Positions 23,254 through 60,598 of a DNA stretch of 64,000 nt are shown piece after piece (within the stretch, counting starts at the first letter, position 1; each line of letters opens with the position of its first letter). Position numbers and translations under genes: made by a program. The notes beneath the pieces were generated by a model. The model had not been told where the DNA came from and ran no database searches. It saw only the letters and a list, made by a program, of their open reading frames with translations. This stretch comes from Folioceros fuciformis (Eukaryota), in assembly GCA_049999805.1 (NCBI GenBank), contig JBNGIO010006246.1, positions 275,587 to 339,586 on the forward strand, read 5' to 3'.

Positions 23254-25536
23254 ATGGAGTTCGTCAGTGGGGACAGGAACTTGTCAGGGTTCGATTCCGT
23301 CAAGGTAAATGAATTTTGCTGCCATCCGGTGTGGGGGCACGGAGACTGGATGGATGCATTCAGACTGCTCGTGAACTTGGACCAAGATTTCGGCTTGCCC
23401 GGCTGGGCGTGGAGTGTGCGTGGGTTGGGTTTTAGGAACGTGACCGATGGTTGGAAAACGATATGCACAGGATTATGTGGAGAGGGTCGGAAGCTCCTCC
23501 ACGCTGAAGAACATCGACGACTGGCTGCCGGTCACGGCTTCTAGGAATGCCAAGTGGTGGTATGCTGCGTTTCACAATGTTACTGCGGTGGTCGGCGCAG
23601 GTGTACTGGGACTGCCCCATGCCATGGCTCGGCTTACCTGGTACGTTTCCTTGTCTGTATACGCCACTGCGTGCACTCATGTTTAACTTCATTTGGATGT
23701 TCCCTGGCCTGCGTTGCTCACGTTCATGTCACTCAGCCCTGCTGGTTGGTGACATGCTGTGTGTGGCGCAATCCGTGCAGGGGTCCGGGTATCGTGATTC
23801 TCATTCTCTCTTGGGTTATCACTCTCTTCACCTTCTGGCAGTTGGTGGAGATGCACGAGATGGTTCCAGGCAGACGATTCGACAGATACCATGAGCTGGG
23901 TCAGGCTGCTTTTGGAGAAAGGTTGGGGCTCTGGATAGTGGTTCCTCAGACACTCACCGTGCAGATAAGCACGGACATAGTGTACATGGTCACTGGGGGT
24001 GCGTGTCTGCAAAACATTCATCGAAGTTTATGTCATTCACACGCTGCCCCCTGCCCAAAATTCGGCATTGCTCCTTTCATTGTCATCTTCGGGTCTGTCC
24101 ACTTCGTGCTTGCCCAATGTCCTAACTTCGGCTCCATCACCCTGTTCTCCTTGGCCGCTGCAGTCATGTCTATCAGGTAAGACTCCACCTAGATTTTACT
24201 GAACATTACTTCGTGTGGGAACGCAGCAGACGGACGTAGCCTGATGAAATTGTGCTGGCTTCCTGACAACACTTGCAGTTACTCAACCATTGCTTGGGTT
24301 ACATCCTTAGCTCGAGGCATAGATGAGCACACTAGTTACCATTTACCATCTCACTCGAGCGGCGCTTCCTCCACCGCAGACATTTTCGAAGCCATGAAGG
24401 CAACAGGAATTGTGGCTTTTGCTTATGCCGGTCACAGTGTGGCACTCGAGATACAAGCCCAGATTCCATCCACTCCAGAGAAGCCTTCCAAGACAGCCAT
24501 GTGGAAAGGTGTAATCACAGCTTACGTTATTGTTGCCTTCTGTTATTTTTCTGTCGCCATATGTGGATACTGGGCATTCGGCAATAAAGTGGAGGACAAC
24601 ATCCTTCGCTCCATCCAGCATCCTGTCTGGGTCGTCGTCACAGCAAATGCCATGGTGGTCATTCACGTCCTGGGCAGCTATCAAGTACGTCATCCACCAA
24701 GTGCTCAATCTTCCCATCACTCATTTTTCCGCCTCACTAACTTTCCTCTACTGCTCCTCATTCCCCTTTCACCCATTCCAGATGTATGCAATGCCTGTCT
24801 ATGACATGCTGGAGATCCTCTTTGTCAAATATATGCGATTCAACCCTAATTTTCTTTTACGTCTGTTTCTACGCTCTGCGTACGTAGGTGAGCGTAGACG
24901 ANNNNNNNNNNNNNNNNNNNNNNNNNNNNNNNNNNNNNNNNNNNNNNNNNNNNNNNNNNNNNNNNNNNNNNNNNNNNNNNNNNNNNNNNNNNNNNNNNNN
25001 NGACTTTGGTTTTGCATGAATGAAGCATATGTTTGTGACCTCGTATGCTAATGCAACTGGTTGCCTGTTTGCAGCCGCCACCCTTTTCATAGCCACACTT
25101 ATACCTTTCTTTGATGCACTTTTGGGTTTCTTCGGTGGGCTCGCTTTGGCTCCCACTACATACTTCGTGAGTATCACTGCATTCTCTTAAGACAATCATA
25201 CAACCTTGGTCTATGGTTCAATAATTAATTTGTCCTGTTCCTGTTTCCACTCTCTCTCAGATGCCATGCATAGTGTGGCTGGTCTTAAAAAAGCCTCGAA
25301 TTGGTAGTGTGTCGTGGATCGTCAATTGGGTAAGAGGGGGTCTTATTGTATATCATGTTGCACCAATGGACTGCCTAGTGATTCTCATTTTACTTGTATG
25401 CCTTGACCAACCCATCTTTGTGCAGGTTTGTATCATTCTAGGGGCTTTGCTCATGTTGAGTGCAACGATTGGAGGATTGAGGTCGATTTACGTAGATGCG
25501 AAAACATATAGAGTGTTTCACCGAAATCAGTCATGA
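23254..25536 (+). CDS. Lysine histidine transporter-like (second canonical paralogue)
   Basis: Motifs [41 protein letters not shown] and [13 protein letters not shown]. First exon [17 protein letters not shown] is inferred from a phase-0 GT/AG pair. One N-gap lies in an intron. Confidence 0.9.
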
Positions 25537-30027: not shown

Positions 30028-30505
30028 GTTGCCAACTTGGAACAAGCTCTCACACAACAGTGGCAAAGGATATTGCACGCTCGTGAAATCGGCAGGCATT
30101 TGGATACCTTTGCAATTCGGGCTGAAGGACAAGGGCGAACTTTGTGTGCACACCGGTTCCAGGTCCCATGGTTACACCACGTGGCTGAAAAGAATAACTC
30201 AGCAGGCCGCGGCCGGCCTAGTGGCAGCAGGGGCCAGCTTGAGCTAGTGACTGCATGACGAGACTTAGAGTTTGGAACAGTCCCTAGCATTTCTCAGAGA
30301 TTCCCATGGCTGGGACCCATCAGCTCTGTGGGAAAAGTTATATCCGGTTTGTCTGCACTAAACCAAAATCGGAGTCAAGTACATCCGGAACAGCTAAAGA
30401 TGTAGCCCACCAGAAGATGCTGATGCTTACTTTGCATAAGCTCGACGAAGGATTGAGGAGCATCAATTGGTGGAACTGACCGCTGATTATCAAATTAAGA
30501 CTGCA

Positions 30506-32755: not shown

Positions 32756-33597
32756 TGGAGCTGCGTAGCTGCCTATTTACTCAAGTAATCGATGTATCTT
32801 GAAAGCATCTGAACTTCAACCTGCGACAAGTTGCTTCTCTTTCCCGTTGTAAGCCTTGTCTTAAGAGGATGAGACTTTTGGCGGAGATACATGGATGGTC
32901 CACTTTGAGGATTGTGGTGGCCGATCACCATTACCCAGAGCTGTTATGGCCCTAACTCTCTCCCACTTGGCGAGAGGGGGAATCCTCGTGCCGATGGCGA
33001 TGGCTTTGCGTGCGGTGGAGCCGTACTTTGGGCGAAGTAACACTGGCTTCCTCATGGTTGTGTGTCACAGACTAGCACCGGGTTGAGAGTATACATGTGA
33101 GGATCGTCCAAAGCTGTGATCACTAGGTTGATGCGGGAGCTCAAGAGGAAAATATGAGGAGAGCGGGCGCTAGTGGCGAGAATTTGGTCTCTGCATGTCT
33201 CCGATGCCGGAGTTGCAGTGCCTCCATGCCTTTTGAAGTGTGGTCAAAGCGTCTGTCGAGCCTGCAAGAATCCAAACAGCCCCTCAGACGTGATGGGAGG
33301 CCGGGTAAGTGACACGGTTCATGTCACAGTTCCAGCTGGTGGTCTTTGAATTGCCGTGAGAGTCGAGGTGTCAATGTGTTCTGCTGGGTGGCAGATCAGC
33401 CAATTGTACAGGATGCGTTGTGGAAAATTTTTATGGCTGATCCTTCTCGCTCGGTGAACAACAGGTCGAACAAGGTAGAATTCTTTTTGCGAGCTAGTGA
33501 TGCCATACTTGTTTCAAAAGGTCCGAAAGCGAATGAGGCCTTGGCAATTCGTTGCATTGTTTACAGTTTGTCTGATCGCCACAGACAATCCTCAAAT

Positions 33598-36500
33598 ATG
33601 CCGACCCCGAGCACAGCACACCAAGAGAGGGCCTGTGGCTTGGGTCTCCTTCTAACCCTGGATGGGTTGAAACGAGGATATCAAGGAAAGAACTCCCTGC
33701 TGCTGCATCCACGGCGTTTTCCCCAAGCCCTGGCTTGCTCTCACAAAGTGATGGGCATCCCCCTTTCAGGTACCGCATTGTGTCGATGGTACTTTTGTAC
33801 TCCCTTTTTTTTGGGTTGTCGACTGACATGTCTGCTGGTTGGTTACGAACTCTGTAGGCTGGCAAGCGGGAACGATTTTGAAGCCTGGATCAAACTGTGT
33901 GGAGAGGGACAGCTTATTGAGGCTTTTGAGGTGTTGGACCTCATGGAACGGAGTGGAATTAAGGTACCAGCTGAGATGTTGCACCACCTTCTGAAGCAGT
34001 GCGTCAAAAGGAAGAATCTAGGAGTTGGCAGACGGGCCCATGCGCTCTCAACTAAAAATGGATACGAGTCAAATTCAGTCTTAGGAGCCCACTTCATCAG
34101 GTTATATTCTTTAAGAGGGGAATTGCTCCAGGCTGCTCAGGTGTTTAGCAGACTGCCTGTGCCAGATACATTAGCGTGGAATGCAATCATTTCAGCATAC
34201 AGTGAGAATAGACGAGCCTGGCAAGCGATCCAGCTTTATCATCATATGCGGCAATCAAACGTGAGGGCAGATGATTATACATTTGTGACTGTTCTGAAGG
34301 CTTGTTCGTCTGCGAGAGATCTATCTGCCGGCAAGCTGGTCCACTCGGATGTGATGGAGAAGGGGTGCAAGTCGAATGCGTTTCTTGATAGTATCCTCAT
34401 GGACATGTATTCAAAATGTGGGAGTTTGGAGGACGCTCGTCAGGTTTTTGACTCTTTGTCGAAGAGAGATGTGGTGACATGGACAGCCATGATTGCAGGA
34501 TATGCTCAGCGTGGAATTGGTGAGGAGGCCCTCAAGCTCTTTCATAGTATGCTGCAGGACCAGGTGACACCGGACAGCTTCACATATGTGAGTATTCTAA
34601 AAGCTTGTGCAAGCATAGGTGTGACACAACACGGTAAGCAGATTCATGCTCAGATTTTACAAAGGGGGCTCGAAACTGACAGCTTCATTGGGAGTGCCCT
34701 CGTGGATATGTATGCTAAATGTGGTAGCCTGGATGATGCTCGCCTGCTGTTTGACAGGTTGCCAAAGCGAAATGTGGTGACATGGAGTGCGATTCTTAAC
34801 GGATATGCCCAGCAAGGCCTTGGTCAAGATGCTTTCAAACTGTATGAGGCTATGAAACAAGAAGGCATCATGCCCGACAAGTTTGTCTTTGCCATTATTT
34901 TAAAAGCATGTGCTAGCATAGGAGCCGATCAGGATGGGCAACGGGTTTATGCTGAAATCATGGAAAGGGGACTGCAGGGGGAGGTGGTCGTTGGGAACAC
35001 CCTGGTAGACATGTTTGTAAAATGTGGCAACCTAGAAAAGGCCCGGAAAGTGTTTGACACCTTGCCAGTCAAATCCACGATGACATGGGGTACCATGTTT
35101 GCAGGATATGCTCAGCAGGGTCTTGGCCATGAAGCTGTCAAATTGTATAAGAGCATGCAACAGCAGGGCTTGGCACCAGATCAGGTAGCGTTTGTGAGCA
35201 TTCTCAAGGCTTGTGGCACCTTGGGAGACAAACAAGAGGGTCAGCAAATTCATGCTCAGATAGTGGATGCGGGGCTACAGGACAATGGATTTGTAGGGAG
35301 TGCCTTAGTGGACATGTATGCCAAGTGTGGAAGTTTGGAGGATGCTCGCAAGGTGTTTGATAGTTTACCCTCAAAAGACTTGGTCACATGGAGTGCCATG
35401 ATTACTGGATATACGCAGCACGGGTTTGGCCATGAAGCTCTCCAATTATACTTGAGCATGCAGCAACATGGCATTGTGCCGGACCATGTGACATTTGTGA
35501 CCGTACTGAAAGCCTGTAGTAGCATTGGTGCTATTCAAGAGGGCAAGTGGATCCACTCCCAAATCCAGGAGAGGGGACTTGCAGCAGATGTTTTTGTTGG
35601 GAGCACCCTTGTGGATATGTATGCCAAATGTGGCAGTTTGGAAGATGCTCAAGGAGTGTTCGACAGATTGCCATCGAAAGATGTGGTTACATGGAGTGCC
35701 TTAATTGTAGGTTATGCAGAACATGGACTTGGTGATGAAGCCCTCAAGCTCTATGAACGAATGCAACAAGATGGGATGTCGCAGGCAAATGAGGTCACGT
35801 TCACTGGCATTCTGAAAGCATGCAGCATCGTAGGAGACCTACAGAAAGTTAAGCAAGTCCATGCTGACATCTTGGACAGGGGACTGGAGAAGAGTGTGAT
35901 AGTGGGTAACACTCTGATTGACACTTATGCAAAGTGTGGGAGTCTTGACGAAGCCCGAACTGTTTTTGATGGGCTGTCAGAGAAGGATGTTGTGACTTGG
36001 AGTAGTATGATTGCAGGATATGCTCAGTATGGACTTGGTCTGGAAGCTCTGCAACTCTATATGACCATGCAACTGGTGGGAATAATCCCGGACGTTGTTA
36101 CAGCAGTGATAGCTGTAAAAGCCTGTGGCAGTGTGGGAGCCTTACATGAGGGCAGGCAGATCCATTCTCACATTGTGGATAAGGGTCTGGTGCAGGACTT
36201 GGTTGTAGGAAATACTCTGGTGGACATGTATGCTAAATGTGGGAGCCTCCATGAAGCGCGCACTGTTTTCGCAGAAATGCCAACTAGGGATGTTGTGACA
36301 TGGAATGCACTCATCAATGGGTATGGCCAACATAATGAGTATGCAATGGCCATTCAGTGTTTCAAGGAAATGCAGGAGGAGGGACTGGGGCCTGATGCTG
36401 CAACATTTACCGCTCTCCTGGTTGCTTGCAGTCTTGCAGGATTGGTAAGTGAGGGTAAGCAGTACTTAAACATGATGGTGGAAAAATACTCCATCTCCCC

Positions 36501-37188
36501 TGGAGTGGAACATTACACATGCATGGTGGACCTCCTTGGCCGGTCGGGGCACCTAGAAGAGGCAGAAAATGTGTTGCTCAATATGCCTCTAATACCAGAC
36601 AGCGTTGGGTGGATGTCACTGCTCAGTGCTTGTAAAACGCACGGGAACGTGGAGCTTGGAAGGCGTTGCTTCGATCAGCTGGTCCAGATTGACCCTCACC
36701 ATGCCGCTGCTTATGTGCTGATGTCAAATATATATGAGAGTGCTGGAAGGTGGAGGGATGTACATTATGTAGAATCTGTGAGAGAGAGAGCAGGGGCTCA
36801 GAAGAAGCTTGCGACAGCCTTTATTGAAGTGAACAATAAAGTGCATCAGTTCACAGTGGGGGCCGACAGGGCTGATACATCCGCGAAGCTGCAGAGTCTA
36901 AATGCAAGGGCGAAGGAGGACGCTGATGTGAGTTTGCAATCACTGTCTGATAAGGAGAGGGAGGATGCTCTTTGTGGGCACGCGGAGAAGTTGGCGTTGG
37001 CCTTTGGTCTTCTTAACACACCTGAAGGCGCAACACTGCTAGTGGTTAAGAATCTTAGAATGTGTCATCATTGCCACAGCGGGACTAAGATCATTTCCAG
37101 CGTCGAAAAGCGAGAGATTATTGTCAGAGATGCACATCGTGTTCATCACTTCCGGGGTGGAGTGTGTTCGTGTGGTGAGGATCGCTGA
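33598..37188 (+). CDS. PLS-class PPR protein with E domains and variant DYW (KP/HAE-type) domain; start uncertain
   Basis: More than 20 P/L/S repeats (LVDMYAKCGSL...), KKLATAFIEV, HAEKLALAFGL, KNLRMCHHCH and HHFRGGVCSCGEDR. Confidence 0.95.
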   Translation: MPTPSTAHQERACGLGLLLTLDGLKRGYQGKNSLLLHPRRFPQALACSHKVMGIPLSGTALCRWYFCTPFFLGCRLTCLLVGYELCRLASGNDFEAWIKLCGEGQLIEAFEVLDLMERSGIKVPAEMLHHLLKQCVKRKNLGVGRRAHALSTKNGYESNSVLGAHFIRLYSLRGELLQAAQVFSRLPVPDTLAWNAIISAYSENRRAWQAIQLYHHMRQSNVRADDYTFVTVLKACSSARDLSAGKLVHSDVMEKGCKSNAFLDSILMDMYSKCGSLEDARQVFDSLSKRDVVTWTAMIAGYAQRGIGEEALKLFHSMLQDQVTPDSFTYVSILKACASIGVTQHGKQIHAQILQRGLETDSFIGSALVDMYAKCGSLDDARLLFDRLPKRNVVTWSAILNGYAQQGLGQDAFKLYEAMKQEGIMPDKFVFAIILKACASIGADQDGQRVYAEIMERGLQGEVVVGNTLVDMFVKCGNLEKARKVFDTLPVKSTMTWGTMFAGYAQQGLGHEAVKLYKSMQQQGLAPDQVAFVSILKACGTLGDKQEGQQIHAQIVDAGLQDNGFVGSALVDMYAKCGSLEDARKVFDSLPSKDLVTWSAMITGYTQHGFGHEALQLYLSMQQHGIVPDHVTFVTVLKACSSIGAIQEGKWIHSQIQERGLAADVFVGSTLVDMYAKCGSLEDAQGVFDRLPSKDVVTWSALIVGYAEHGLGDEALKLYERMQQDGMSQANEVTFTGILKACSIVGDLQKVKQVHADILDRGLEKSVIVGNTLIDTYAKCGSLDEARTVFDGLSEKDVVTWSSMIAGYAQYGLGLEALQLYMTMQLVGIIPDVVTAVIAVKACGSVGALHEGRQIHSHIVDKGLVQDLVVGNTLVDMYAKCGSLHEARTVFAEMPTRDVVTWNALINGYGQHNEYAMAIQCFKEMQEEGLGPDAATFTALLVACSLAGLVSEGKQYLNMMVEKYSISPGVEHYTCMVDLLGRSGHLEEAENVLLNMPLIPDSVGWMSLLSACKTHGNVELGRRCFDQLVQIDPHHAAAYVLMSNIYESAGRWRDVHYVESVRERAGAQKKLATAFIEVNNKVHQFTVGADRADTSAKLQSLNARAKEDADVSLQSLSDKEREDALCGHAEKLALAFGLLNTPEGATLLVVKNLRMCHHCHSGTKIISSVEKREIIVRDAHRVHHFRGGVCSCGEDR

Positions 37189-37613: not shown

Positions 37614-39563
37614 TCATCTTTGTTTAACACTTACAATGTGTTCCCATCGTCCATCAAGAGACGCAACCTGCTCCTTCTGAACAGGAGAGATGTGGACCCG
37701 CTTGTCAAGTACTGGGGCACTCGGCTTCTTCTTCACAGTTGCTATGTGCTCCCACTTTTGAGGTCCAGGAGCAGCTACCTTCTTTTGGACAGCAGCTACG
37801 AGGTCCCGCGTTTCAAGATCAGCAGCACTCACCGCCTTCTTCATAGTTGCTATGTGCTCCCAATCACCAGGCACGGGGGCAGCTATACTGTTTGATTGAG
37901 TCCCCTCGGCTGCTTTGGTCTCCTTCCCAAACCCACATCTTTTGTACATCAGCAGTACTGCCGTATCCAAGTCAGAATCTGGCTCCACCAGAATCTTTGC
38001 AGCCTGAGATTGAAGCCATTTGCCAACCTCTACCGCTGCTGGTACTGTACAAGCTTCTAGCAGTTTGATGAATGTGGTCTGTGTTGGTGTGTGTCCATCT
38101 TGTAGCATGCGAGGGAAGAGCTCATACGTTTCTCCGTACTCTCCGTTCAAAATATATCCTGCAATCAGCATGCTCCAAGTAACGACATTCTTGCGGGAAA
38201 GACTGTCAAATATCTGGCGGGCTTGTTGCATATTCCCAAAGCTTGCATACATGTGAATTAGATTGGTGCCAACACTTACATCAGTTTCAAGTCCAACCTT
38301 TCTGACAATAGCGTGGATCTGTGTTCCCTCAACAACAGCTGCATCTTTCGCGCATGCAACCAGTACTGCGCCGTAGGAAGATCGATTTGGGCGGACTCCT
38401 TCGAGCTGCATCTGCTGGAAGAGCTCACGAGCCTCCTTGCACAAGCCATACTGATTGCAACCTGAAATCATAGCTGTCCAGGAAACGACATCTCGTGTCG
38501 ACAGCTTCCTGAACACGATGTGGGCATCAAGTATGGCTCCACATCTAAGATACATGCATTGGACTGCAGTTCCCACGATAACATCCGACTCAAATCCCCT
38601 TTGTACAACATCTCTGTGAATCAGCTTGCCGTGATTCAAATGCCCCGCATCGGTGCAAGCATTGAGAACACACACATATGTGATCTTGGTTGGTTTCACA
38701 CCTGCACTCTGCAACTTCCGATAGAGTGTGAAGGCCTTCAAAGTATGCCCATTACTGGCATAGCCAGCGATCATTGCATTCCATGACACCACGTCCCTCC
38801 TCAGCATGCTGTCAAATACCTGGCGTGCTGCCTCTACATTCTGACATTTAGAATACATGTCAATCAGGGAATTCTGCACAAACTGGTTTAGATTAAGCCC
38901 CTCATCACAGATGAGCCTGTGAACTCGCTCACCATCCTCTAGACTTCTCAACTTTGCACAAGCGCTAAGCACAGAAACAAGAAGCTGACCAGATGGCTTC
39001 ACATCAGAGTCCTGCATCTCGAAGAACAAGTTCAACCCTTCTCTACCTTGATCATTTAGCACATAACCAGTTATCATTGCAGTCCAAGAAAACAAATTAC
39101 GCCTTTCCATACTATCGAATTCCCTCCGAGCACGCTCTGTGTGGTTGCAGGATGTGTACAAGCGGATGAGATTGTTCCTGAAATATTTGTTGGCATACAG
39201 ATTATGTTTGATCAACAACGTGCGTACCCTCTCGCCCTCTTTGAGCACTTTCCTTTTTATACAGGTCTGCAAGATCAGACCAATCGTCTCGCTGTCAACC
39301 TGTAGGTCATGCTCATCTATTAGGTTCAGTGCCGAAGCCAGCCTACCCTGGTAACAGAGTTTCCGGACATCCAGGGCAACCGCCCTTGAAATCTCTGTGG
39401 GTGCAAGCCCACCTATCAGCTCAGGACCCGACACATTTTCCACCTCATGCAGAACTTCTGTGGCCAGTGCTGCCCGAGCAGCAAATCCATTTGAGCCGAT
39501 ACCCTGCATCATGGGGCCTCTTGCATCCACACGCTGAAGCCTGACACATCTGACCAGTCGCAA
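37614..39563 (-). CDS. PLS-class PPR protein lacking E/DYW, with a repetitive C-terminal tail; true start uncertain
   Basis: PLS repeats (NSLIDMYSKC, DVVSWNAMIAGY); the tail has three WEHI-containing repeats. Confidence 0.9.
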   Translation of the reverse strand: MRLVRCVRLQRVDARGPMMQGIGSNGFAARAALATEVLHEVENVSGPELIGGLAPTEISRAVALDVRKLCYQGRLASALNLIDEHDLQVDSETIGLILQTCIKRKVLKEGERVRTLLIKHNLYANKYFRNNLIRLYTSCNHTERARREFDSMERRNLFSWTAMITGYVLNDQGREGLNLFFEMQDSDVKPSGQLLVSVLSACAKLRSLEDGERVHRLICDEGLNLNQFVQNSLIDMYSKCQNVEAARQVFDSMLRRDVVSWNAMIAGYASNGHTLKAFTLYRKLQSAGVKPTKITYVCVLNACTDAGHLNHGKLIHRDVVQRGFESDVIVGTAVQCMYLRCGAILDAHIVFRKLSTRDVVSWTAMISGCNQYGLCKEARELFQQMQLEGVRPNRSSYGAVLVACAKDAAVVEGTQIHAIVRKVGLETDVSVGTNLIHMYASFGNMQQARQIFDSLSRKNVVTWSMLIAGYILNGEYGETYELFPRMLQDGHTPTQTTFIKLLEACTVPAAVEVGKWLQSQAAKILVEPDSDLDTAVLLMYKRCGFGKETKAAEGTQSNSIAAPVPGDWEHIATMKKAVSAADLETRDLVAAVQKKVAAPGPQKWEHIATVKKKPSAPVLDKRVHISPVQKEQVASLDGRWEHIVSVKQR

Positions 39564-40579
39564 ATGTCAACCAAGCTGTAAGAAATCCAAAACCCCAGAA
39601 ACGGGTCAAGTCTAAAGACGTACCTGGCACTCAAGGCACCTTGAACTCCGCAAAGCACATTGTAGCAGGATGCATGATGCTGCCCAGAAACCCAAGCTCC
39701 AGACTGGAAAAACACAAGCCCACGGTGACAATCTTGAGTTGCGATGTAACCCCGCCTTCTGCCAGATTCAGGGTCATACAGTTCATGATTCATACCGTTC
39801 CCCTGTTTCGGCAGGTCCACACCAGTTGCTGCAACACATCTCCCCGCTTCTTCCTAGCTGCTTCAAGATCCAGACAGGCCAACCCAGTCCAGTCTCTAGC
39901 TAGCTGCGATAGCCGCCAACACTGCGTTAACGTCTCAAGTGGAACCGACATTGTAGGGACGATAAATGCCCTCTACTAATCCAGAAGAATGGTGCCAAGA
40001 TCGTACCATTACGCAGTTCATGATGCAAGACGGAGAAGCTTGAACCTTGAGTTGGCGGTTGGGACATAGTATGGTGTGGCGAGATGAAGCAGGTTGCGAT
40101 GTTTGCAAATGGGCCCGACTAGGTGATTGTGCCTCAGCCCCAAGCATAGCCGGATTTACTGTCCGGCACAAATGCTAGAGCTCGACTAGTAAGCGTTTCC
40201 CGAAATCCAGTCGTTGGTCGATCAGACTCAACAGAAAAGTTTCAAAACTCCTCACCGATTTGGGCCATAATCCAGTGTGGCACCCCATCTGAGTGCACCT
40301 TTGGGATATACCATTTCCACTATCTAATGGTTGTCAAACAGGATAGCAGACATGTCTGGAAAAAACGCACCGATATGGTCAATGGCCCGAGCTAAGTGCA
40401 GGATGAAGATGCTCAGCTCGATCTGGCATGCAAGGCAATCCCGGGTTCTCACAGGCCTACCAGACGTAGATCTCTTCACGACCCGCTCTGTCATATGTGG
40501 GTTTGTGAACGACTCTGTACGTGTTCTGTTGATCAAGCGGGGCATTCGACCATTTTCACTTTGTGTCCAATCCGCAAGA

Positions 40580-42860
40580 CTATGCTCTGAAATGTATTAA
40601 GTCGGGGTTGATTTCCGGAGGTGAGGGTCTCTTAGAAGGATACTCTTCCAGGGATTTCGACAGGTTTATTGCATCCGCTAAGTATGCGGCATACTTCCTG
40701 CTGGCACTCATCTCCTGCTCCAGCTCCACATAAATGCTGCGAGTTTCGTTGCCATGGAGTTGTAAGGATCCGGACTCCTCAGCCCAGATTTCTTCCAGAA
40801 ACTTGCAACTGATGTGGCATTCCCCTGCTGTGGAAGCGGCAATGGGTAGGGGCACGACGAGGGTATTCAAACACGAGTCCTTCAAGGTCCACTCTCCAGT
40901 GTACCAGTCGAAGTCGTACAAGGGCAGAAATCTCTGACCCTGGTCAGCGACGAATTCTATGGCCGACAGAATGAAGTGGAACTCGTCGTCGGTTATGAAG
41001 AAGCCGAAGCTGAGCCTTGCCCACCCAGGCTTCACACCGATGTGGCCCTGCGGTAAGGAGACACATCCCATTATTAGTCCAGGACTGTTGGGTGGTCAGG
41101 AAACATAGCAAAACATAGCAGATTCTTGTTCCGCTCACCTTCCTAATCGCTTCCCGAAACGCCAAGGATTCGTCGTCGTCGATGTTCAGTAGGTAGTGGC
41201 CGTAAGGTGCTGCACAGGCACACCCAGCTCTCGCTTGTATCCCAAATAAATCATTCAATAGCCTAACAACAAAACGGCAGTGTAAAGGTTTCCCAACAGC
41301 TATTCTGCTCTCCCCGATGTTGTCAGAGCAGGCCTCCAGCTCTCTGGAGTACACCAGAAACGACAAAATGGCACATCGTTTCACTTCGGTGTTGCCAAGA
41401 ATGTGAACATAGGGATTCTTCTGCAGCCTCCTGATCGCAGTTGTGATGAAGTAGTGTTCTCTTTCGTCGATAAGGTCATGACCGATGAGCTCTTTCACCC
41501 AGAAAGCTAGAGCTGCCCTCACTTTTTGCAGTATGGGAGGTGTACCAGCGTCCTCTCGCTGCTCGATATCTTTGGCATAAATAGTATCCTGCAGAAAAGA
41601 GGCAGTCACGTTGACAAAGCTATGATCAATGCGCATGCAGTGCATGTGTTTCAGGGAAGTAGTGCCCGGAGATCACTGTAACAAAACACCTACAGCCTCA
41701 CCTTGGCATGCATGTTGACGTAATCTACGGTTCCACCTCCAGAAGTTGATGGGGGAAAGTCCTTCAGTAGGTACAGATCCTTTGTCATGACCAGAATTCC
41801 AGGGGATCCAGGGCCACCCAAAAACTTGTGAGGGCTCAGAACCACCGCATCATACCCATCCAGCTGCCCAGCACGCATGTCGATTCTGACATATGGGCCA
41901 CTGCAAATTGGACAAGGCGTTATCAGACCCGCAAGAAAGCAAGAAAGAGGAGCACTGCTGCTAGTGAGTTTAAACGGAGGTGTTAAAAGGCATGCCTAGC
42001 TGCAAAGTCGAAGCAGGCAAAGGCGCCGTGCTCGTGTAGAATGCAGGCTATGGCACGCGTGTCTGTTACCAGCCCAGTCACATTACTGGCGGCAGAAAAG
42101 GATCCCAGCTTTGGTCTGCTTCGATAATTTGGATCCTTGAGGGCTGCTCTCAACTTCCTCATATCCAGGCCACTGCCATCATCATTCATAGGTATCTCTA
42201 TGACCTGCACTTCACGCAACGGAGTTTTGTTCATCCCAACTATTTTCTGGCTGCAAATGGCAAACTCTGGTGAAACCGTCATACCTCAGCCAAACTCTCG
42301 CGCCAAGAAAGCAGATTTGAGTGGTGTTCATATGGTCCCACAAACACCACCCACTTTTCAGCGTCAACCAGCATTTCCCCAACTCTTGAGGTCAGAATTG
42401 ACGGCACACATACTCCCAAGCATTCCTGAAGCCTTTTCAAAGCTGCTGTGGTCCCACTTCCACAGTAAAATATAGCTTCGTCTCGTGTGGCCCCAAGGCA
42501 ATGCTTAATGAAGTCGCTTGCCTCATGAGCAGCATAGGTCATGGCTTTCCCCACATGACTGTCTTCTGTGTGGGTATTGCCTGCGAGAACAGAAATTACA
42601 GAAACCAAGTTCATTGGCATCTTTCCTCGGTGCACAAGCGAATACTCCAATTTCCAGCAAACAAAGGCTGAATTAAAGTAGACGCACCATAGAATGGAAG
42701 TAAGGTCTGCGCTATGAAGTTCTCCACGTGGAGAAGGGGCTGGCCCGACGCTGTGTGATCCGCATAGGTGAGCAGCCGTGTGGTCCCAAATGCCGTCCGA
42801 AACTCTATTGCTCGTCCTGGAATTTGAGACCTTATCCAAGCACATGCAGCTGCCTCGCTT
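40580..42860 (-). CDS. PLP-dependent class V aminotransferase / cysteine desulfurase-like domain (C-terminal part of the ABCG fusion)
   Basis: Motifs YADHTASG, GNTHTEDS, EHHSNLLSWRE, FSAASNVTG, DFAA, SPHKFLGGPG, EDAGTPPI, QARAGCACA and KPGWARLSF. Confidence 0.9.
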
Positions 42861-49108: not shown

Positions 49109-49715
49109 GAGGATTCCAGACGCAACAACTGCGCCTCATCAGGCTGTTGCTGCTGTCTCGTTCTGTTGACGGTGTGGGAGGCGACGGGGTTGTAGCCTCC
49201 ACTGAAGATTAGAGTCGGGACCCGGGATCACAGGTTTATCCCGTAGTTGCAAGGCTAGGTTAGTTTGAGCATGCGTAGATGCTGTGGCTGGAAGACGCTA
49301 AGTGTGGTAAGCATCTTGGTGTAGCGCTCTCCATCTCAAACAAATCGCCTTGTGAAACTTTTGCTGTCGGTTCAAGTCGACTTCGTTCTGTACTCCCTTT
49401 TCGCAAGGCCAAGTCTGGTCACAGCTTGGAGTTTTGCGGGTCCAGCAACGCGCTAGAAAACAGAGCTGTGCGACGAAAGAGGACAAGATCATCGTCGAAC
49501 ACAAAGACGCAAAGCAGACGCATCTTCCTCTCATCGACCTCTGCTTGCCGCGTTGTGCTTGCCAGAGCAGCACGCTCTGCCAGCCCAATCCATTTGTGGC
49601 GGATGACAAATTCTCGTCCTTGTATGGAACCGTGAATTGTGAGACTGAGCTTTGGAAATCATCAGAACCTCTTGTGGCGTCCCAGGCCAGCCCTGCCGCT
49701 GAGCTGTAGCTTGGC

Positions 49716-51847
49716 ATGGCGCTGGAAGCTAGCGCTGCATCAGCCCGGCTGCTGGCAGAAGGGCCAGCGCTGGAGCACAACTCCAGCTACCACTCCATTC
49801 CCGTCCTCAACATGACCACGGCGGCATGGGCAGGCGTCGCGCTTATTCTCGCCTTCTCGATCGGTGTGGCCGTGGCCGGGGCCATCAAGCTGGCATTCGC
49901 CTTGCGGAGCCTGGCAGAGGAGAAAAAGGCCATGGAGAAGGGCCACGAAGCATCCCTGAAGCAAAAAATACAGCAGATCCGGGGATTTGAGTCTCCGGCC
50001 GGTGCGGTAATCCGGACCGCGCCTCCCCCCCGCGCGGAAGCTGTGGCCAGGGTGGAGAAGGCGTCGCCAGAGCGGACGCCATGGAGCTTCGGAGCACGGG
50101 ACATGGTGGCCGAGAATCGGTACAGCGCGGTGTACCGCGTGGTGATGCCGCTCACGGGGCAGGCCGTGGCCGTGAAGCGCGTGAGCCGATGCCTGTGCCA
50201 GCGAGCTCGGAAGGACGCGGGCCGATTGCTGCGGGAGGCCAGCGTCGCTCACCCTAACGTGATGTGGCCGACCGGGTTTGTGCTCGACAAGGGCCACAGC
50301 CTGCTGTTGCTCTACCCGGAGGAGCATATTGGGAGCGGGACCTTGCGGGATCTGNNNNNNNNNNNNNNNNNNNNNNNNNNNNNNNNNNNNNNNNNNNNNN
50401 NNNNNNNNNNNNNNNNNNNNNNNNNNNNNNNNNNNNNNNNNNNNNNNNNNNNNNCTGGTGAAGGTGGACAAGTCGAGGGAAAAGTATGCTCGCGGCGGGG
50501 CTCCTGCCGGTGCAGGCTGGGACGTGGAGTCTGTGCCTTCTGACATGTCGGATCTTAGCCTGTATCCGCAGTCCACTAGCTATGAAAGCTCGGCGATGTT
50601 TTCATGTCAGGATTGGAGTGAGTCTAGATCTGCGGCGGGTAGCACGGCCCTGAGAGACGCCAGGGAGTACTTGAAGCGCATGGCGGAGACGTTCCGTGCG
50701 AGGGAAGGGAAATACTACGAATCCGAGACGGAAGGGAGCATCATCTCGTTCCGTGTTGGCTCCAAGTTCACCGCCAATTCCACAGCGTCCACAATGTCCT
50801 GGCGTGACGCACAATCTGATGTTGAGTCAGTGCGGCACGAGTCCGGACACATTGATGCAGGGAGTTTCGAGCCGGGTGGAGTTTCCGTGGCAACGAGGAA
50901 GGCTACCAGCAGCGGCGAGTATTCTGCTTGGTATGGCCATTCTTCCTTCCACCGTTCCCCGTCTAAGGATCTCCCCAAGCTTGCTGCGCATATGGATCCC
51001 TACTCTACTCCGCCAACGACACGTTTCGAAGGAGGAAGTGCGACCGGCATGAACTGTAAGACGAAAAAGCATGAGAGTCGGATACAGATACCGAAGAAGT
51101 ATAAGAGGGAGGAGCATGAGGATTGCGATTTGTTGAATTGGAGGGCCAGGTTCCAGATTGCGTTGGGGCTGGCTCGGGGACTCGCGTTTCTGCATCACAA
51201 ATGCTCGCCCCCACTCATCCACCTTGACATCTCCTCCAACACGGTGTTTGTCGACAACAACAAGCAGGCCAAGTTATGCGACGCGGAACTCAGCAACCTG
51301 CTGGATCCAGCAAATTGCAGCGTGGAAGATGGAAACGTGTTTACGGACTGTGCCTCTGAGGGCTACGTAGCGCCAGGTATACATATGTGTACGCAGCTTG
51401 CATCAATCATTAGTCTTGTCTCGTTAGCTTGCTGCTGCTGCCAGATGCATGGCAGCAGATCAAAGCTTAACAATCTGATCCGCTGTGTGGTGCGCAGAAT
51501 GTGGAACCGACATCAAGGGCGTCGCTCGTAGCTGCAATGTCTACAGCTATGGCGTTGTACTGTTGGAGTTGCTCACAGGAAAGGAGGCCAGCGGCTACAT
51601 CGACCAGCACCACAAACACCTTGTGTCGTGGGTAAAGGCAAACGCAAGCTCACAGTTGCAGTACCATGATGCCATCGTTATCTTTGATGGAAGGATCACT
51701 GATGATATGGGCTGTCTTCGGCACATGCTGTCCGTTCTGCGGATTGCTATGCTGTGCATCAGCCCTGCATCATGTAGGCCAGATATGCAGAAGGTTGTAC
51801 AGCTTTTAGAGAAATCTGACTCCAGGGGAAGATTTCGGCGCAACTGA
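49716..51847 (+). CDS. Membrane-anchored PXC3-like kinase without ectodomain, with a large insert in the kinase domain
   Basis: TM segment; VAVKRV, HPNVMWP, GTLRDL, then an N-gap and Ser-rich insert, then WRARFQIALGLARGLAFLHH, HLDISSN, GYVAP|E, NVYSYGVVLLELLTG and RPDM. Confidence 0.8.
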
Positions 51848-52186: not shown

Positions 52187-53994
52187 TCAGTTTCGGTGAT
52201 GCATTCGTCCGCTTTCGGACCCTGCAAATGGATCAATCGTGACATTGATAACCGCAGGTGTTCTTGCGGAGAAGGACTCTTTCAGAGCCGACTCTAGCTC
52301 CTCTGGCGTTCCTGCCAGATAGCCTTTCCCTCCAAAGGCTTCCATCATGACGTCATAGCGCGCACCTGGGACAAAGGATGTTGGTGCTGGATCGTCTTTG
52401 TGCGGCCCTGAAATATCTTCTGGTCGCCTGCGGTCGCCACCGTAAACTCCACCGTTGTTGAAAACAATGATGACCACAGGCAACTTGTAGCGCACTAGAG
52501 TCTGATGGAAGAAAACGAGGGATAAAAAATGTAAGACGCGATGTACGACACTCAACTACTGCATGACATGATCGATATTTACCTCAACTTCCATCGCACT
52601 GAACCCAAAGCCAGAGTCCCCTTCGACAGCCACAACCAGACGTCCAGGTGACACGACAGCCGCTGCAATGGCGTAACCTAAACCGACTCCCATGGTTCCC
52701 CAGGTGCCGGCATCGAGCCTTGTCCGGGGCTCAGTCTGCTCGAGAACTGACCTCCCCACATCCATAGTGTTGGCCCCCTCAGACACCAGGATCGGAGCTG
52801 GTGAGCCTTCGCCCAATATGGCATCTCGGATGATCCTCATGGGAGTCAGGAAGTTGAACGGAACAACGACTTTGGCCAGTGATGCAGCCATTCTGCTCTT
52901 GTTCACTTCAGTTTTCGACCGGACCTGTTGCACCCAAGGATGCCCACTTCCCAGCACGAATGGATCATCTTTCACGACCTTGTTCAGTTGCTGGATAACA
53001 ACTCTGGCATCGCCAACTAGTCCAACTGCGGGCTTTCTCAACTTTATCTCTGCTTCATCAATGTCGACCAGGATGAACTTGACATCCTTTGACCACTGCG
53101 GAGGTTCACCAAAATGTAGCAACCAGTTCAGACGTGCACCGACAACTAGGACCACGTCACTCTGCCCTACCACCAATGATCTGGCTGCTGCAGCAGAGAG
53201 GGGATGAGAATCAGGAAGCAACCCCTTCCCCATCGGAGTAGCCAAGAAGGGAATTCCCGTGACTTCAACAAATTGCTTGATGGCCCCCTCGGCCCTTGCC
53301 AAGGCAGCTCCTTTTCCGAACACAATCAAAGGCCGCTCTGCATTCTTCAGCAGCTCAGCTGCTTTCTCCAAGTCGGCAGATGGAACTTGCTTGGTCTCCT
53401 CTCTGGCCCATACTGGAACAAGTTTCTGAACAGAGCTCAGAAGCTTTTCTGCATCTTCCTCTGACAGCGTCTCATGTAGCACATCCGATGGTAAATCAAC
53501 ATACGTCCCACCCGGCCTGCCATCCACTGCAGCGGCCAATGCATCGGAGACAACCTTTGGGATCTCCAATATGCTCCTTGCCTTCCCAGAGTACTTCGAA
53601 AAAGGTTTCACGATTTCCACCTGGTCTAACTCCTGGAAATCGCCTTTTCCGACGTCCGCTTGTGTACTGGAACCGGATACCAAGACCAGGGGCCAAGTAT
53701 TGATGGTGGCATTACTAAGACCAGCCAAACCATGAACACAACCTGGCCCAGATACAGTGAGAAGAACACCAGGCTTGCCTGTCAAATAACCAGCCGCACC
53801 AGCTGCATACCCTGCAGATTGCTCATTGTGGAAAGCTATGAAGCGGACGCCTTCCTTCACCGCACTTGAAGCAAATGAGGTCACAGGAATCCCCACCACT
53901 CCAAACATGTGTTCCACTCCGGCCTTTGCAAAAGCCCGGGCTGCCACAACATTGCCATCCACTACTCTATGCTTGATCTCTGCCCCATTCGTTT
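52187..53994 (-). CDS. HACL1: Oxalyl-CoA decarboxylase / 2-hydroxyacyl-CoA lyase (TPP-dependent), with no own start codon
   Basis: Motifs MFGVVGIPV, FHNEQSAGYAA, GDFQELDQ, SEGANTMDVGR, RLDAGTWGTMGVG, EGDSGFGFSAME, NNGGVYGG and ESGRMHHRN. Confidence 0.95.
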
Positions 53995-54276
53995 CTGCAA
54001 CCGCTCAACACAAGAAATGACACTTCGTCAGGTAGCTGAATGTTGCAACCACACCACTTTCTACGATCCCTGCAGAATTCCGACAAGTGCCAGGACAAAA
54101 TACTGCCCTGCATGATGACCCTCAGGTGTCTGAGGACATAAATGTGTCCACCACATGTGCGTACCAATGCTCCAAAAACCCCGCCAGATACCAGGCTGCA
54201 GAGTTTACTCCAGATTGATGGCATGTTTACAATCGCTGAAGAACACCCCTAACAAGGTCTACGAAAAGCCAATCTG

Positions 54277-56225
54277 CTAACCTGTTTTTTCTTCTTTTTG
54301 AGAATCGGCAGGCGTAGGCAGGAAGTGTTCAGCAACCATGCGCCGCTGAATCTTGCCAGTTGCCGTCTTAGGAAGCTCTTCACCGAAAAACAAACGCTTG
54401 GGGATCTTGAATGGGGCAAGGTTGCTCCTTAGAAATTCCAAAATATCCTTGTCAGTGGCTTTTGACCCTTTAATCAACACCACTGCGGCATTCACCTGTT
54501 GCACGGTGTATTGCGAGTCAGTGGAAGCTGACATGTCTGCAAGCCCCAGTTCTAAAAAGTCATAGATAAGTCTTTGCGACGTTGAGAAGCTGTACCTCTT
54601 CACCGTACTTTTCATCTGGAGCAGCAAAAGTCACAGCCTCTGAAATTTTTGGATGCCTCAGTAGCACACCATCGACCTCAAGAGGAGATATCTTCTCGCC
54701 TGCAAAAGCGTAAAGTCAGCTGTGAGCTGTTTTTCAGCAATACCTTTACCATCACAACCTCAACATTGTGGCACCACTAGCTTACCACCGCGGTTGATGA
54801 GCTCTTTGATACGGCCAGTCAAGGTGAGGTAGCCCTCCTTGTCCAAAAACCCACGATCACCGGTATGAAACAAGCCAAACTCGAACGCAGACTTATTAGC
54901 TTCCGGATTGTTCTTGTACCCCTTGGTCACATTTGAACCCCGAATGCACACCTCACCCTGCTCTTCAGGCTTCAGAACGTTACCCTCATCGTCCAGAATG
55001 GCGAGTTCAACACCTACTGGTTTGCCAACTGTTCCCGCCTTGTGCGGTCCATGTGCCGGCAGTGGATTGGCAGTGATCTGATGACTGGCTTCTGTCATAG
55101 CGTAAGCCTCAAGCACCGGAGCCTGGAAAGCTTCCTCTAGCTTCTCCAACACCGCCGGTGCAAGACTGGAACTGCAGCTTCGGATGAACCTGAGCTTGGG
55201 ATATTCCTCCAGCGGTTTGCTCCTATGCAACGAGAGCAATATCTGATGGATGGTGGGAACCGCAGTGTACCAAGTAGCACGGTAGCCCTTTATGTCAGCC
55301 CAGAAGGTGGACGCAGAAAACCGACCTGCAGCTGGCAGAATTGCAGCCCCACCGGCCGCCAGACTCGAGAGCAATGCCGCCATCAGCCCGTGAACGTGAA
55401 ACAGAGGCATGACGATCAGAGTACGGTCAGACTCCGATAGATCATACGCTGCCTTGATGTTCAGCACTGACGTGGCCAAATTTTTTTGCGTCAGAGGAAC
55501 TCCCTTGGGCCTGCTGGTGGTCCCTGAAGTGTGGAGAAACAGCGCACCATCCTCCTCCTCAGGCTGCGGCCCTGCCACATCTTCACTCTCGGCTCCCACC
55601 TCCAGCCGTGCGCGGGACGAGAGGACGACATCCCCNNNNNNNNNNNNNNNNNNNNNNNNNNNNNNNNNNNNNNNNNNNNNNNNNNNNNNNNNNNNNNNNN
55701 NNNNNNNNNNNNNNNNNNNNNNNNNNNNNNNNNNNTCCCAATGCACCCCGGCCACCGGCAAGCCGAGTCTCGCAGCCGCAGCTTCAGCAGATGCGTTTCC
55801 CTCCTTCGCGGGGACCAGCAACAGCGACGACTCGGCATCCTTCAAATAGAACATGAATTCATCCTCCGTGTAGGCAGAATTGAAAGGAGCTGCGACCGCA
55901 CGAACCCGGATGGTTGCCAAGAACACAACCACGAACTACCCACAATGCACAAATCCGTCATTAGCACAGGCTCGGATCAAACCAATTATCCCACACTGGA
56001 GAGAGTCTTTGAGAAACCCACCTCAAGGGAATTGGGCAAGGCAAGCGACACCACAGCTCCAGGATTGACACCGACACGCCTCAGCTGGGCAGCAGCCTTG
56101 CTGACCGCAGCACCCAATTCGGAATGCGAGAGCTGGGGGCCTCTGGACGCAATCACAGCCGCATTTCTCGCGTGCTCAGCAGCAGCCTTCTCGAGCAGAG
56201 CAGTCACTGTGACAGCTAGTGCCAT
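54277..56225 (-). CDS. AAE3: Oxalate--CoA ligase (oxalyl-CoA synthetase)
   Basis: Motifs LFLHTSGTTSRPKGVPL, PLFHVHGL, RFSASTFW, WYTAVPTIHQIL, RFIRSCS, LEAYAMTEA, GRIKELINRGG|EKISP and LPKTATGKIQRR. Confidence 0.95.
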
Positions 56226-56674
56226 TGCGGAAGCCTCCCACTTCTACGGACGGGTCGCTAGGAAGGAGGCTATTTCAACCGCTCGAAAGACTGGAGGGCC
56301 TTCCAGGGTTCCTTTCGGTACCGGAGTATCCTACGCACCTGGCCTCCTCCTGTGCATGGAGGACAGGGTAATGGGGAACGCACACGTCATAATACGCATA
56401 TGGATATTTGAGGTAGATACCTTATGGTCCACGGGAGATAGTATTTCATTCGCCAATGAAGTAACGCCCCCTTCGTTACGCAGCGTAGAAGGAAGCAACG
56501 GCCTCGAATCNNNNNNNNNNNNNNNNNNNNNNNNNNNNNNNNNNNNNNNNNNNNNNNNNNNNNNNNNNNNNNNNNNNNNNNNNNNNNNNNNNNNNNNNNN
56601 NNNNNNNNNNGCTCCAAGTAGCCCGCCGTCCACTGACGACTAGGCTCCAAGTAGACTCTCACTGTCGTGCTGCT

Positions 56675-57205
56675 CTTTATTCCAGATACTTACAAAAGCT
56701 TTATTCCGGATACTGGTTAGGTTTATTCCAAATACTTACAAAAGAGCAATCTGACAAGCTTCCTCTTCAAACCCTCCACAGTTGTGTCTGAAGGCTAGGC
56801 TTCTCACTGAGAGCTATGTGAGAAGCACTGACAGCTATGTGAGTGTGAGAAGCACGGACAGCTATGTGACTGTGAGAAGCCCTGACCTCTCACTGAGGGT
56901 TTGAAATCTTGCTTCTCACTGAGGGTTTGAGGGGTTTGAGATCTTGCTTCTCACTGAGGGTTTGAGGTTTTGCCTTGAACACACATCCTTTGAGGTTTTG
57001 CTTGGAACACACATCCTTTGGAAAGGAGATTTTCCAAGAAGCATAGATATGTGAGATTTTCCAAGAAGCATAGATATGTGTTCCAAATGTGTGTTCCAAA
57101 GGCAGCTCTAGACTTAGTTTTCACCTTTCTACTTTTATTTCACTTGTATCATTACTAATGCGACCTTTCTACTTTCATTTCACTTGTACCATTACTAATG
57201 CGGAA
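56675..57205. repeat. Series of different short direct duplications
   Basis: tttattccagatacttacaaaag, agctatgtgag..gagaagc, tcttgcttctcactgagggtttga, gaacacacatcctttg, gagattttccaagaagcatagatatgtg and tttcacttgta.cattactaatgcg each occur 2-3 times. Confidence 0.85.
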
Positions 57206-58870: not shown

Positions 58871-59206
58871 ACTGTGTAAACTGATATTGTCTAAACCCAG
58901 TTCTGAACAACCGGCCGGTGTGACACGCGATGTCGGAAAACCGCGACGGAAAGCATTTGTACTAAAAAATGTTTTTTTTGGGTTCGTTGTTTGTAGGGTT
59001 AAGTGTTGGCGTGGTTGGCCTTGGGTTAAGTGTTGGTGTGGTTGGCCTTGTGGTATACCATAGAGAGGATACTCCAATGACATGTAGGTACTACCAGTCG
59101 CTGCTTCTAAACGCTTGTTAGGTCTACTCTTGCCTGTCGGCTGGGAAGCGAGCTGGTCTTGAACATCCCTCGCAGGTCACAGCAAGGGACGTCAAATTGT
59201 TCCACC

Positions 59207-60598
59207 ATGGCGAAGCGCGGGTTGATGGAGCAGGATTTGAGCAAGTTGGAGGTGGATAAGCTGCATCCGCAGTCTCCAGAGGTGATCTCCCGGCAAGCAA
59301 CGATAAATCTTGGAACGATCGGGCATGTGGCTCACGGGAAGTCGACAGTGGTGAAGGCTATCTCGGGGGTGCAGACCGTGCGATTCAAGAACGAGCTGGT
59401 TCGGAACATCACTATCAAGCTAGGTTATGCGAATGCGAAGATCTATGTCTGCGAGAATGAGAACTGCCCTCGGCCGGTGCGTTACAAGGCCTACGGCAGT
59501 GGCAAGGAGGACAGCCCACTGTGTGATGTGCCTGGGTTTGAGACCTCTCGGATGAAGCTGTTGCGGCATGTGTCTTTTGTGGACTGTCCTGGACATGATA
59601 TTCTCATGGCTACTATGCTTAACGGTGCTGCCATCATGGATGGGGCCCTGCTGCTCATTGCGAGCAACGAAAGCTGCCCGCAGCCGCAGACTTCAGAGCA
59701 TCTGGCTGCTGTGGAGATCATGCGTCTCAAGCATATTATTATTCTGCAAAACAAAATAGATCTTATCCAGGAAAGCGTGGCGATGAACCAGCACGAGTCC
59801 ATCCAGAAGTTCATTCAGGGCACTATTGCAGACGGTGCTCCAGTGGTGCCAATATCTGCACAGCTGAAGTACAATGTGGATGTTGTTTGTGAGTACATCG
59901 TGAACAGGATTCCCATCCCGGAGCGAAATTTTGTTGCTCCACCAAACATGATTGTGATCAGGTCCTTCGATGTTAACAAGCCTGGAGCTGAAGTGGACGA
60001 TATTAAAGGAGGAGTTGCGGGGGGCAGCATTTTGAGAGGTGTGCTGAAGGTGGGGCAGAAGATTGAGGTTCGGCCAGGACAGGTGACCAAGGATGAGAGT
60101 GGCAGTATCAAGTGCACCCCTATTTTCTCGAGGATCATCTCCCTGTATGCGGAGCAGAACGAGCTCCAATTTGCGGTCCCTGGTGGACTCATTGGTGTTG
60201 GCACTACCATTGATCCCACTTTGACTCGTGCTGACAGGCTGGTTGGTCAAGTGCTTGGTGAGGTTGGGGAGCTACCAGAAGTTTTCGTTGAGCTGGAGGT
60301 GAATTTCTTTCTTCTTCGGCGACTGTTGGGTGTGAGGACCAAAGGCACTGAGAAACAAGGGAAAGTTAGTAAGCTAGCAAAAGGAGAGGTGCTCATGTTG
60401 AACATTGGGTCCATGTCAACTGGCGCACGGGTGCTGGCCGTCAGAAATGATCTTGCTAAGTTGCAGCTCACTTCACCAGTATGCACGAGCAAGGGAGAGA
60501 AGGTAGCCCTCAGCAGAAGAGTTGAGAATCACTGGCGATTAATTGGTTGGGGTCAAATCCAGGCCGGAGTACAGCTCGACATTCCCCCAGTAGCATAG
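59207..60598 (+). CDS. EIF2G: Eukaryotic translation initiation factor 2 gamma subunit (intronless CDS)
   Basis: Motifs [48 protein letters not shown] and WRLIGWG. Confidence 0.98.

Follow-up and report, generated by a model that had tools for sequence, protein, structure and literature searches.

Does a gene for an oxalyl-CoA synthetase (AAE3) end at its own stop codon, or is it spliced to the exons of a second enzyme that follow it? This question is raised by a stretch of 64,000 nucleotides (nt) from Folioceros fuciformis (contig JBNGIO010006246.1, positions 275,587 to 339,586; hereafter the window, to which all positions refer), where an AAE3-type gene and exons for a thiamine diphosphate (ThDP) enzyme of the oxalyl-CoA decarboxylase (OXC) type both lie on the minus strand. 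Judged from the DNA and from related proteins, it is quite likely that they form a single gene with six exons (minus strand, 56225 to 52187) encoding a bifunctional AAE3-OXC fusion as a single spliced protein. An earlier note on this DNA had described the two parts as co-oriented and about 280 bp apart, and the distance between the AAE3 stop codon and the OXC exon was determined to be 282 nt. The AAE3 frame ends with GAA AAA ACA GGT TAG, in which a GT (54281-54280) directly precedes the stop codon (54279-54277), and the large OXC exon begins at 53994 after TTGCAG. Both observations had been reported correctly, as had the intron of 287 nt (54281..53995) and the maintenance of the frame when 54282 is joined to 53994. 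The splice reads ..QKEEKT-E-TNGAEIKHRVVDGN.., which bears out the proposed junction, and the peptide spanning it with residues of both halves is ..EEKTETNGAEIK.. The result is one frame, open over 1132 codons, that begins at ATG 56225 and ends with the stop codon at 52189-52187.

Phase compatibility alone would be met by chance in one of three cases, and it is because of the relatives, not because of the matching phases, that the fusion is more than a chance reading. By BLASTP, the spliced product gave one match to the Sphagnum fallax protein BDL97_09G066300 (P0001, 1102 residues), extending from residues 4-1132 over residues 3-1102 with 73.0% identity. The proteins of Calypogeia fissa (P0002, 1105 residues, 71.6%) and Marchantia paleacea (Mapa_006291, P0003, 1101 residues, 71.3%) likewise each yielded one whole-length match. 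All three have the same domain order and are collinear over the full length; they are annotated by generic names only (hypothetical protein, unnamed protein product). Relative to them, the window protein has about 30 additional residues, which are inserted into the AMP-binding core and lie partly under a mask of 100 N (55636-55735) inside exon 2; the frame is the same on either side of the mask. The four exon junctions outside the linker are gap-free in the BLASTP alignments, among them those of exon 3 and that of the 81-nt intron, both aligned to P0001 without a gap, and the Glu at the linker junction stands opposite a Glu of Sphagnum. The single polypeptide of roughly 1,100 residues that had been suggested is thus supported by the whole-length single match of the 1132-residue product to three bryophyte fusions and by a linker within the range of the relatives.

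Fused relatives are widespread. A search of long proteins with the OXC exon, for which 8000 candidates were scored, gave 123 matches, and the best 120 (831-2370 residues) were listed. PF00501 occurs together with TPP domains in 44 of these 120 proteins; this count is based on the precomputed Pfam column (PF00501 plus TPP families) and leaves out P0036, which has AMP-binding_C only. AMP-binding precedes TPP across the junction in 43 of the 44, and for P0001, P0003, P0008 and P0033 this order was confirmed by Pfam coordinates. The named bryophyte fusions belong to three species, Sphagnum fallax, Calypogeia fissa and Marchantia paleacea, with 78%, 75% and 74% identity to the OXC exon, respectively. 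Among the matches listed, streptophyte algae are represented by six Closterium entries, chlorophytes by Trebouxia, Coccomyxa, Chlorella, Micractinium, Chlamydomonas eustigma, Chloropicon, Ostreobium, Polytomella and Auxenochlorella, and red algae by Galdieria sulphuraria. Further fused entries bear EukProt handles, which we take to stand for Mesotaenium, Spirogloea, Chlorokybus, Chromochloris, Botryococcus and Galdieria phlegrea. Fusions of AMP-binding with TPP_enzyme domains are therefore present in bryophytes, in streptophyte and green algae and in the red alga Galdieria. Among 50%-identity representatives, the OXC exon again retrieved the fused proteins P0008 and P0010, and the ESM Atlas contains a eukaryotic cluster of 51 members, 100% of which possess AMP-binding and TPP_enzyme_N. 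Across 34 fused proteins, little or no variation was seen at the oxalate-pocket residues, at the Glu that activates ThDP, in the DFQE motif or in GDS...N. The architecture is not new, as it is contained in public annotations of bryophytes and many algae; the earlier note had warned that its novelty would fall in this event, and this caveat applies.

Fused open reading frames (ORFs) were also found in mRNA-sized contigs and de novo transcript assemblies (P0005, P0013, P0022, P0032, P0037). P0005 is a TRINITY ORF marked complete, while P0013 (1093 residues) and P0032 (1095 residues) fill contigs of 3524 nt and 3422 nt, respectively, indicating a fused mRNA in at least some species. These frames are uninterrupted and no gene predictor was involved, which argues against an annotation or read-through artefact, i.e. 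against the idea that predictors join adjacent genes in many species and that no fused polypeptide is made. An artefact of this kind would be in line with the fused and split models that different pipelines produced within Sphagnum, and the full-text literature searched yielded no biochemical account of a fused enzyme. In view of the recurrence of the architecture in 44 of the 120 proteins listed, which range from red algae to bryophytes, of linkers that are always open and of low complexity, and of an independent fusion in reverse order (P0113, see below), we regard it as highly improbable. For annotation, the locus is nevertheless a warning, since pipelines are inconsistent in treating it as one gene or two, even inside the genus Sphagnum.

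Both halves can be assigned to enzyme families. Exons 1 to 4 encode AMP-binding and AMP-binding_C according to Pfam, with exon 1 covering positions 1-58 of AMP-binding and exon 2 matching this domain with an E value of 1.1e-63, and the translation contains the P-loop TSGTTSRPKG and the motif PKTATGKIQRR. An in-frame stop codon lies immediately 5' of ATG 56225, and the N-terminus can be aligned to those of relatives. The best solved relatives in the PDB, from Arabidopsis (5ie0, E 2.1e-143) and Lathyrus (6qjz, 1.6e-138) and the entry 8aff (5.1e-89), are all oxalate--CoA ligases. In excerpts of PMC8905533, the oxalate pocket of AtAAE3 is described as V215, H216, C288, S289, A313, M314, H319 and K500; conservation of S289 and H319 is said to be confined to oxalyl-CoA synthetases. 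HMMER alignments to 5ie0 revealed identity at all eight positions here, Ser289 and His319 included; the closest known enzymes to this half are Arabidopsis AAE3 (5IE0/5IE2/5IE3) and Lathyrus LsOCS (6QJZ). By these features, the N-terminal half is an ANL-type (AAE3/Pcs60-type) oxalyl-CoA synthetase with predicted activity. What separates it from the Arabidopsis and Lathyrus enzymes is its C-terminus. These are stand-alone proteins of 514-521 residues ending at the position of ..HFLPTP, whereas here the frame continues into the linker and the second enzyme. Residue P514, the C-terminus of AtAAE3, aligns opposite ..HFLPTP; the unspliced frame, in which the last AAE3 exon (54495-54280) is followed by the stop codon TAG (54279-54277), runs ten residues further (ADSQKEEKTG).

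Exons 5 and 6 encode TPP_enzyme_N, TPP_enzyme_M and TPP_enzyme_C by Pfam. The ThDP signatures FHNEQ, with the cofactor-activating Glu, GDFQELD and GDSGFGFS...NNGG are present in the translation. PDB matches belong to the family of OXC and 2-hydroxyacyl-CoA lyase (HACL), with E values down to 3.3e-131, and the top NCBIfam family is the oxalyl-CoA decarboxylase equivalog NF006721. Exon 5 alone, representing 474 of approximately 575 residues, scored 507.6 bits and remained under the cut-off of this family (557 bits) because some 100 residues are absent from the query; the full ortholog P0001 reached 641.6 bits. The sequence does not safely separate OXC from HACL, and the PDB matches bear both names, but the oxalate-specific ligase to which the enzyme is fused argues, by inference, for OXC activity. 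Arabidopsis OXC (as far as excerpts of PMC8004701 describe it) and bacterial OXC (PDB 2C31, 2Q27) contain the same three ThDP domains. They possess a start codon of their own, in contrast to the OXC exon of the window, which lacks one and has an in-frame stop codon upstream. The coordinates of the gene model are compiled in Table 1.

Table 1. Coding exons of the proposed AAE3-OXC gene, with the linker intron and the intron in the OXC part, in the order of transcription
Feature	Position	Strand	Characteristics
Coding exon 1, AAE3 half	56022..56225	-	ATG 56225-56223; 68 codons; donor GAG|GTGGGT
Coding exon 2, AMP-binding core with P-loop TSGTTSRPKG	54786..55935	-	phase 1 end; donor GTG|GTAAGC
Coding exon 3, hinge and start of AMP-binding_C (GEKISPLEVD..)	54596..54699	-	Pfam AMP-binding_C positions 1-27
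Coding exon 4, rest of AMP-binding_C (..PKTATGKIQRR..HFLPTP) and first 9 linker residues	54282..54495	-	ends ACA G|; phase 1
Linker intron, 287 nt	53995..54281	-	donor CAG|GTTAGC; acceptor TTGCAG|
Coding exon 5	52583..53994	-	12 linker/N-terminal residues, TPP_enzyme_N, TPP_enzyme_M and first part of TPP_enzyme_C; donor GAG|GTAAAT
Intron, 81 nt	52502..52582	-	interrupts the ThDP-binding motif GDSGFGFS...NNGG
Coding exon 6, rest of TPP_enzyme_C	52187..52501	-	Pfam TPP_enzyme_C positions 67-151; ends ..GRMHHRN; stop TGA 52189-52187

The start of the OXC part bears on the question of one gene or two. As had been noticed before, no in-frame ATG precedes the conserved core, since the first Met (..VEHMFGVVG..) already lies inside the TPP_enzyme_N match, and an in-frame TGA (54007-54005) is located four codons before the acceptor. 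The claim that no ATG of the spacer splices into frame did not hold, as 11 stop-free combinations of an ATG and a GT reach the acceptor at 53994 in frame. The likeliest of these starts, ATG 54224-54222 with the donor GGA|GTAAAC (54209|54208), would give MPSIWK-TNGAEIKH... This ATG, together with its weak donor, is an in-frame alternative by which a stand-alone OXC could be made, and it belongs to a group of observations that weigh against a single fused product. The fusion donor carries a T in position +3; at 287 nt, the linker intron is about three times as long as the other introns of the gene (81-100 nt). Products of this locus, whether fused or separate, are absent from the protein collection, in which the best identity among the matches listed is 81%. 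Moreover, close relatives have stand-alone OXCs with their own Met (P0131-P0133; 569-570 residues, contigs of 2.2-2.9 kb) and stand-alone AAE3s (P0392, P0393; 521 residues, ending ..HFLKTAA*), and the Sphagnum locus was split by other annotators (P0124, P0395).

The main rival explanation is that of two tandem genes. AAE3 would end at TAG 54279-54277 and be polyadenylated in the spacer, and OXC would have a promoter of its own and begin with a mini-exon of five codons (MPSIW) at ATG 54224, spliced from 54209|54208 to the same acceptor to give MPSIWKTNGAEIKHRVVDGN... This combination is open and in frame, and the 17 residues that it places before DGN equal the length of the N-terminal extension of stand-alone plant OXCs. 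Separate genes also occur elsewhere. The search for OXCs of similar length gave 424 matches at E <= 1e-150 and that for AAE3 gave 1418 matches at E <= 1e-100; the best 120 of each were listed, and without exception they are TPP-only and AAE3-only, respectively, including proteins of lycophytes, ferns and seed plants. Among the matches listed, AAE3 and OXC of vascular plants are thus encoded by separate genes, and the stand-alone plant OXCs exhibit identities of 68-78%. On the other hand, only 52 nt separate the AAE3 stop codon from ATG 54224, so that the OXC promoter and 5' untranslated region (UTR) would overlap the last exon and the 3' UTR of AAE3. The donor of the mini-exon has an A at -1, where all five homology-supported donors, including that of the linker, have a G (GAG|GT, GTG|GT, GAG|GT, CAG|GT, GAG|GT), and MPSIWK is unlike the N-terminus of any relative. 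In addition, the AAE3 tail ADSQKEEKT, which extends past the Arabidopsis C-terminus, fits the linkers of the fused relatives in length and composition. In 43 fused relatives, these linkers comprise 9-65 residues (median 25.5 over 44 rows including the window) and are low-complexity sequences rich in Ala, Pro, Ser, Gly, Lys and Glu; the linker of the window has 21 residues, those of bryophytes 18-21. Two tandem genes are therefore considered unlikely. In the closest relatives of the two halves, P0121 (OXC, 81%) and P0388 (AAE3, 75%, both among the matches listed), each protein is encoded on a single contig of 10527 nt, suggesting that the halves are probably neighbours in the nearest relative too.

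The split Sphagnum models are informative with regard to the linker intron. A stand-alone AAE3 model of Sphagnum jensenii ends with ..KESTSG*, a stand-alone OXC model of S. balticum starts with MPEDINANKK, and the fusion of S. fallax reads ..KESTS-E-DINANKK. The alternation between a Gly followed by a stop codon and a split Glu corresponds to the pattern found here (..EEKTG* versus ..EEKT-E-TNG), which points to an intron at the same place and in the same phase, a conservation deduced from alternative protein models and not from DNA. In the donor CAG|GTTAGC of the window, bases 3-5 and the next base provide the TAG stop codon of the unspliced AAE3 frame. One may speculate that this embedded stop (ACA G|GT TAG) is a conserved switch with two outputs: splicing would lead to the bifunctional enzyme, whereas intron retention or intronic polyadenylation would release a complete, stand-alone AAE3 with one additional Gly. 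We put this forward tentatively, as a possibility with more doubt than support. If the switch is real, the shared junction in the Sphagnum models means that it has been kept since the lineages of the window and of Sphagnum diverged, and it could be an intermediate towards the separate genes of vascular plants. A second in-frame acceptor, GGGGCAG|AG (53980|53979), is located 15 nt downstream of the first; its use would shorten the linker by five residues.

Under the favoured reading of one fused gene, the main mRNA would lose the 287-nt linker intron and encode a bifunctional enzyme of 1132 residues. Its N-terminal half would convert oxalate, ATP and CoA to oxalyl-CoA, AMP and PPi, the halves would be joined by a flexible linker of some 21 residues, and the ThDP-dependent C-terminal half would cleave oxalyl-CoA into formyl-CoA and CO2. 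We infer the use of the splice sites in this organism and the activities of both halves from the sequence. The fusion would give a fixed 1:1 stoichiometry, co-localisation and possibly a hand-over of oxalyl-CoA, and a self-associating OXC would then bear at least two synthetase modules. An AlphaFold2 model of P0001, built on the 34 fused sequences, had a mean predicted local distance difference test (pLDDT) score of 85.0 with both halves well folded, while the linker (residues 516-532) showed pLDDT values below 50 and no secondary structure. Its predicted template modelling score (pTM) of 0.61 means that the relative placement of the halves is not confident; channelling of oxalyl-CoA, which had been considered possible, is purely conjectural.

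To place the OXC part among its relatives, a quick IQ-TREE search was performed with 51 hand-chosen rows, comprising the window, 27 of the 44 fused proteins, 15 stand-alone proteins (14 near-length OXC matches and one fungal TPP-only long protein) and eight others. The tree agrees with the species tree. The window OXC lies in a land-plant clade of 18 rows supported by a Shimodaira-Hasegawa-like approximate likelihood ratio test (SH-aLRT) value of 100, where it constitutes its own branch in a polytomy with liverworts, mosses, a lycophyte and euphyllophytes; as the search was quick, its starred branches merit less confidence than a careful search would warrant. Fused sequences of algae and bryophytes are paraphyletic to the stand-alone OXCs of vascular plants. 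Together with the distribution of the fusions, the simplest reading of this tree suggests that the ancestor of the green lineage already had the fusion and that it came apart into two genes later, in vascular plants, which would make it a clean case of gene fission; the tree was rooted on bacterial OXC, and gain and loss are not separable without a root. Two of the stand-alone OXCs (P0131, P0132) adjoin Sphagnum, and stand-alone AAE3s matching them exist (P0392, P0393), so that a second split may have occurred within the mosses.

Oxalyl-CoA decarboxylases are also joined to other partners. In the CoA-transferase III (Frc-like)-OXC fusions P0044 and P0045, which are metagenome proteins, the same logic of an oxalyl-CoA-producing enzyme linked to the decarboxylase is realized with a different partner. 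The protein P0113, an MMETSP transcript of 1127 residues, contains the same two enzymes as the window in reverse order (TPP 15-541, AMP-binding and AMP-binding_C 609-1098). Its OXC part groups with animal and fungal (opisthokont) HACL-type sequences in the tree, which indicates an independent fusion event. A TRINITY transcript (P0030) combines a formyltransferase with OXC, many bacterial proteins of 882 residues combine a GntR/FCD regulator with OXC, and Aspergillus and relatives have TPR-OXC proteins, the last two kinds occurring within P0064-P0120 and P0047-P0063; domain coordinates of these other-partner fusions were checked for P0044 and P0030.

No description of a natural AAE3-OXC fusion was found in the open full-text literature searched. 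Where the terms 'fusion' and 'fused' were looked up in the accessible text of papers on these enzymes, they referred to His, GFP or SUMO tags only. The OXCs of Physcomitrium and Chlamydomonas are included in the tree of PMC9090294, and no word beginning with 'fus' occurs in that article. The linked pair supports the view that plant homologues named 2-hydroxyacyl-CoA lyase act on oxalyl-CoA, and it offers a natural scaffold with which it can be tested if tethering speeds the CoA-dependent breakdown of oxalate. This breakdown is relevant for low-oxalate crops and for the defence against oxalate-secreting fungi.

The linker intron was also considered as a source of structured RNA. This was rejected since its folding equals that of shuffled sequences (z -0.10), and the Rfam scan of the whole window gave no match in the intron. 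A second mask of 100 N (56511-56610) precedes the AAE3 start codon by approximately 290 nt and probably falls within the promoter or 5' UTR; in total, the window contains 500 N. Short repeated peptide strings (HIYASWKIS, twice) in translations of both strands at about 56750-57150 suggest that a short DNA sequence is repeated in tandem immediately upstream of the gene. At the other end, a protein-kinase gene of the receptor-like kinase type (49710-51847, plus strand) is convergent with the end of OXC. The stop codon of its last ORF (51847) is only about 340 nt away from the OXC stop (52187), which leaves room only for short or overlapping 3' UTRs.

The gene content of the window is that of an ordinary land-plant nuclear genome. 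An uninterrupted PPR protein of 1291 codons with C-terminal E and DYW deaminase domains (33313-37185, plus strand) is convergent to a second PPR gene of 650 codons (37617-39566, minus strand); both are of the kind that typically edits organelle RNA in land plants. Other genes encode a GDSL lipase (1225-2625, minus strand), an amino-acid transporter (23545-24801, plus strand), an LRR receptor kinase (27913-30171, minus strand), a fragment of a class V aminotransferase (40947-41672, minus strand) and eIF2 gamma (59111-60595, plus strand). The sole Rfam match at gathering score in the whole window is a tRNA gene (22259-22332, plus strand).

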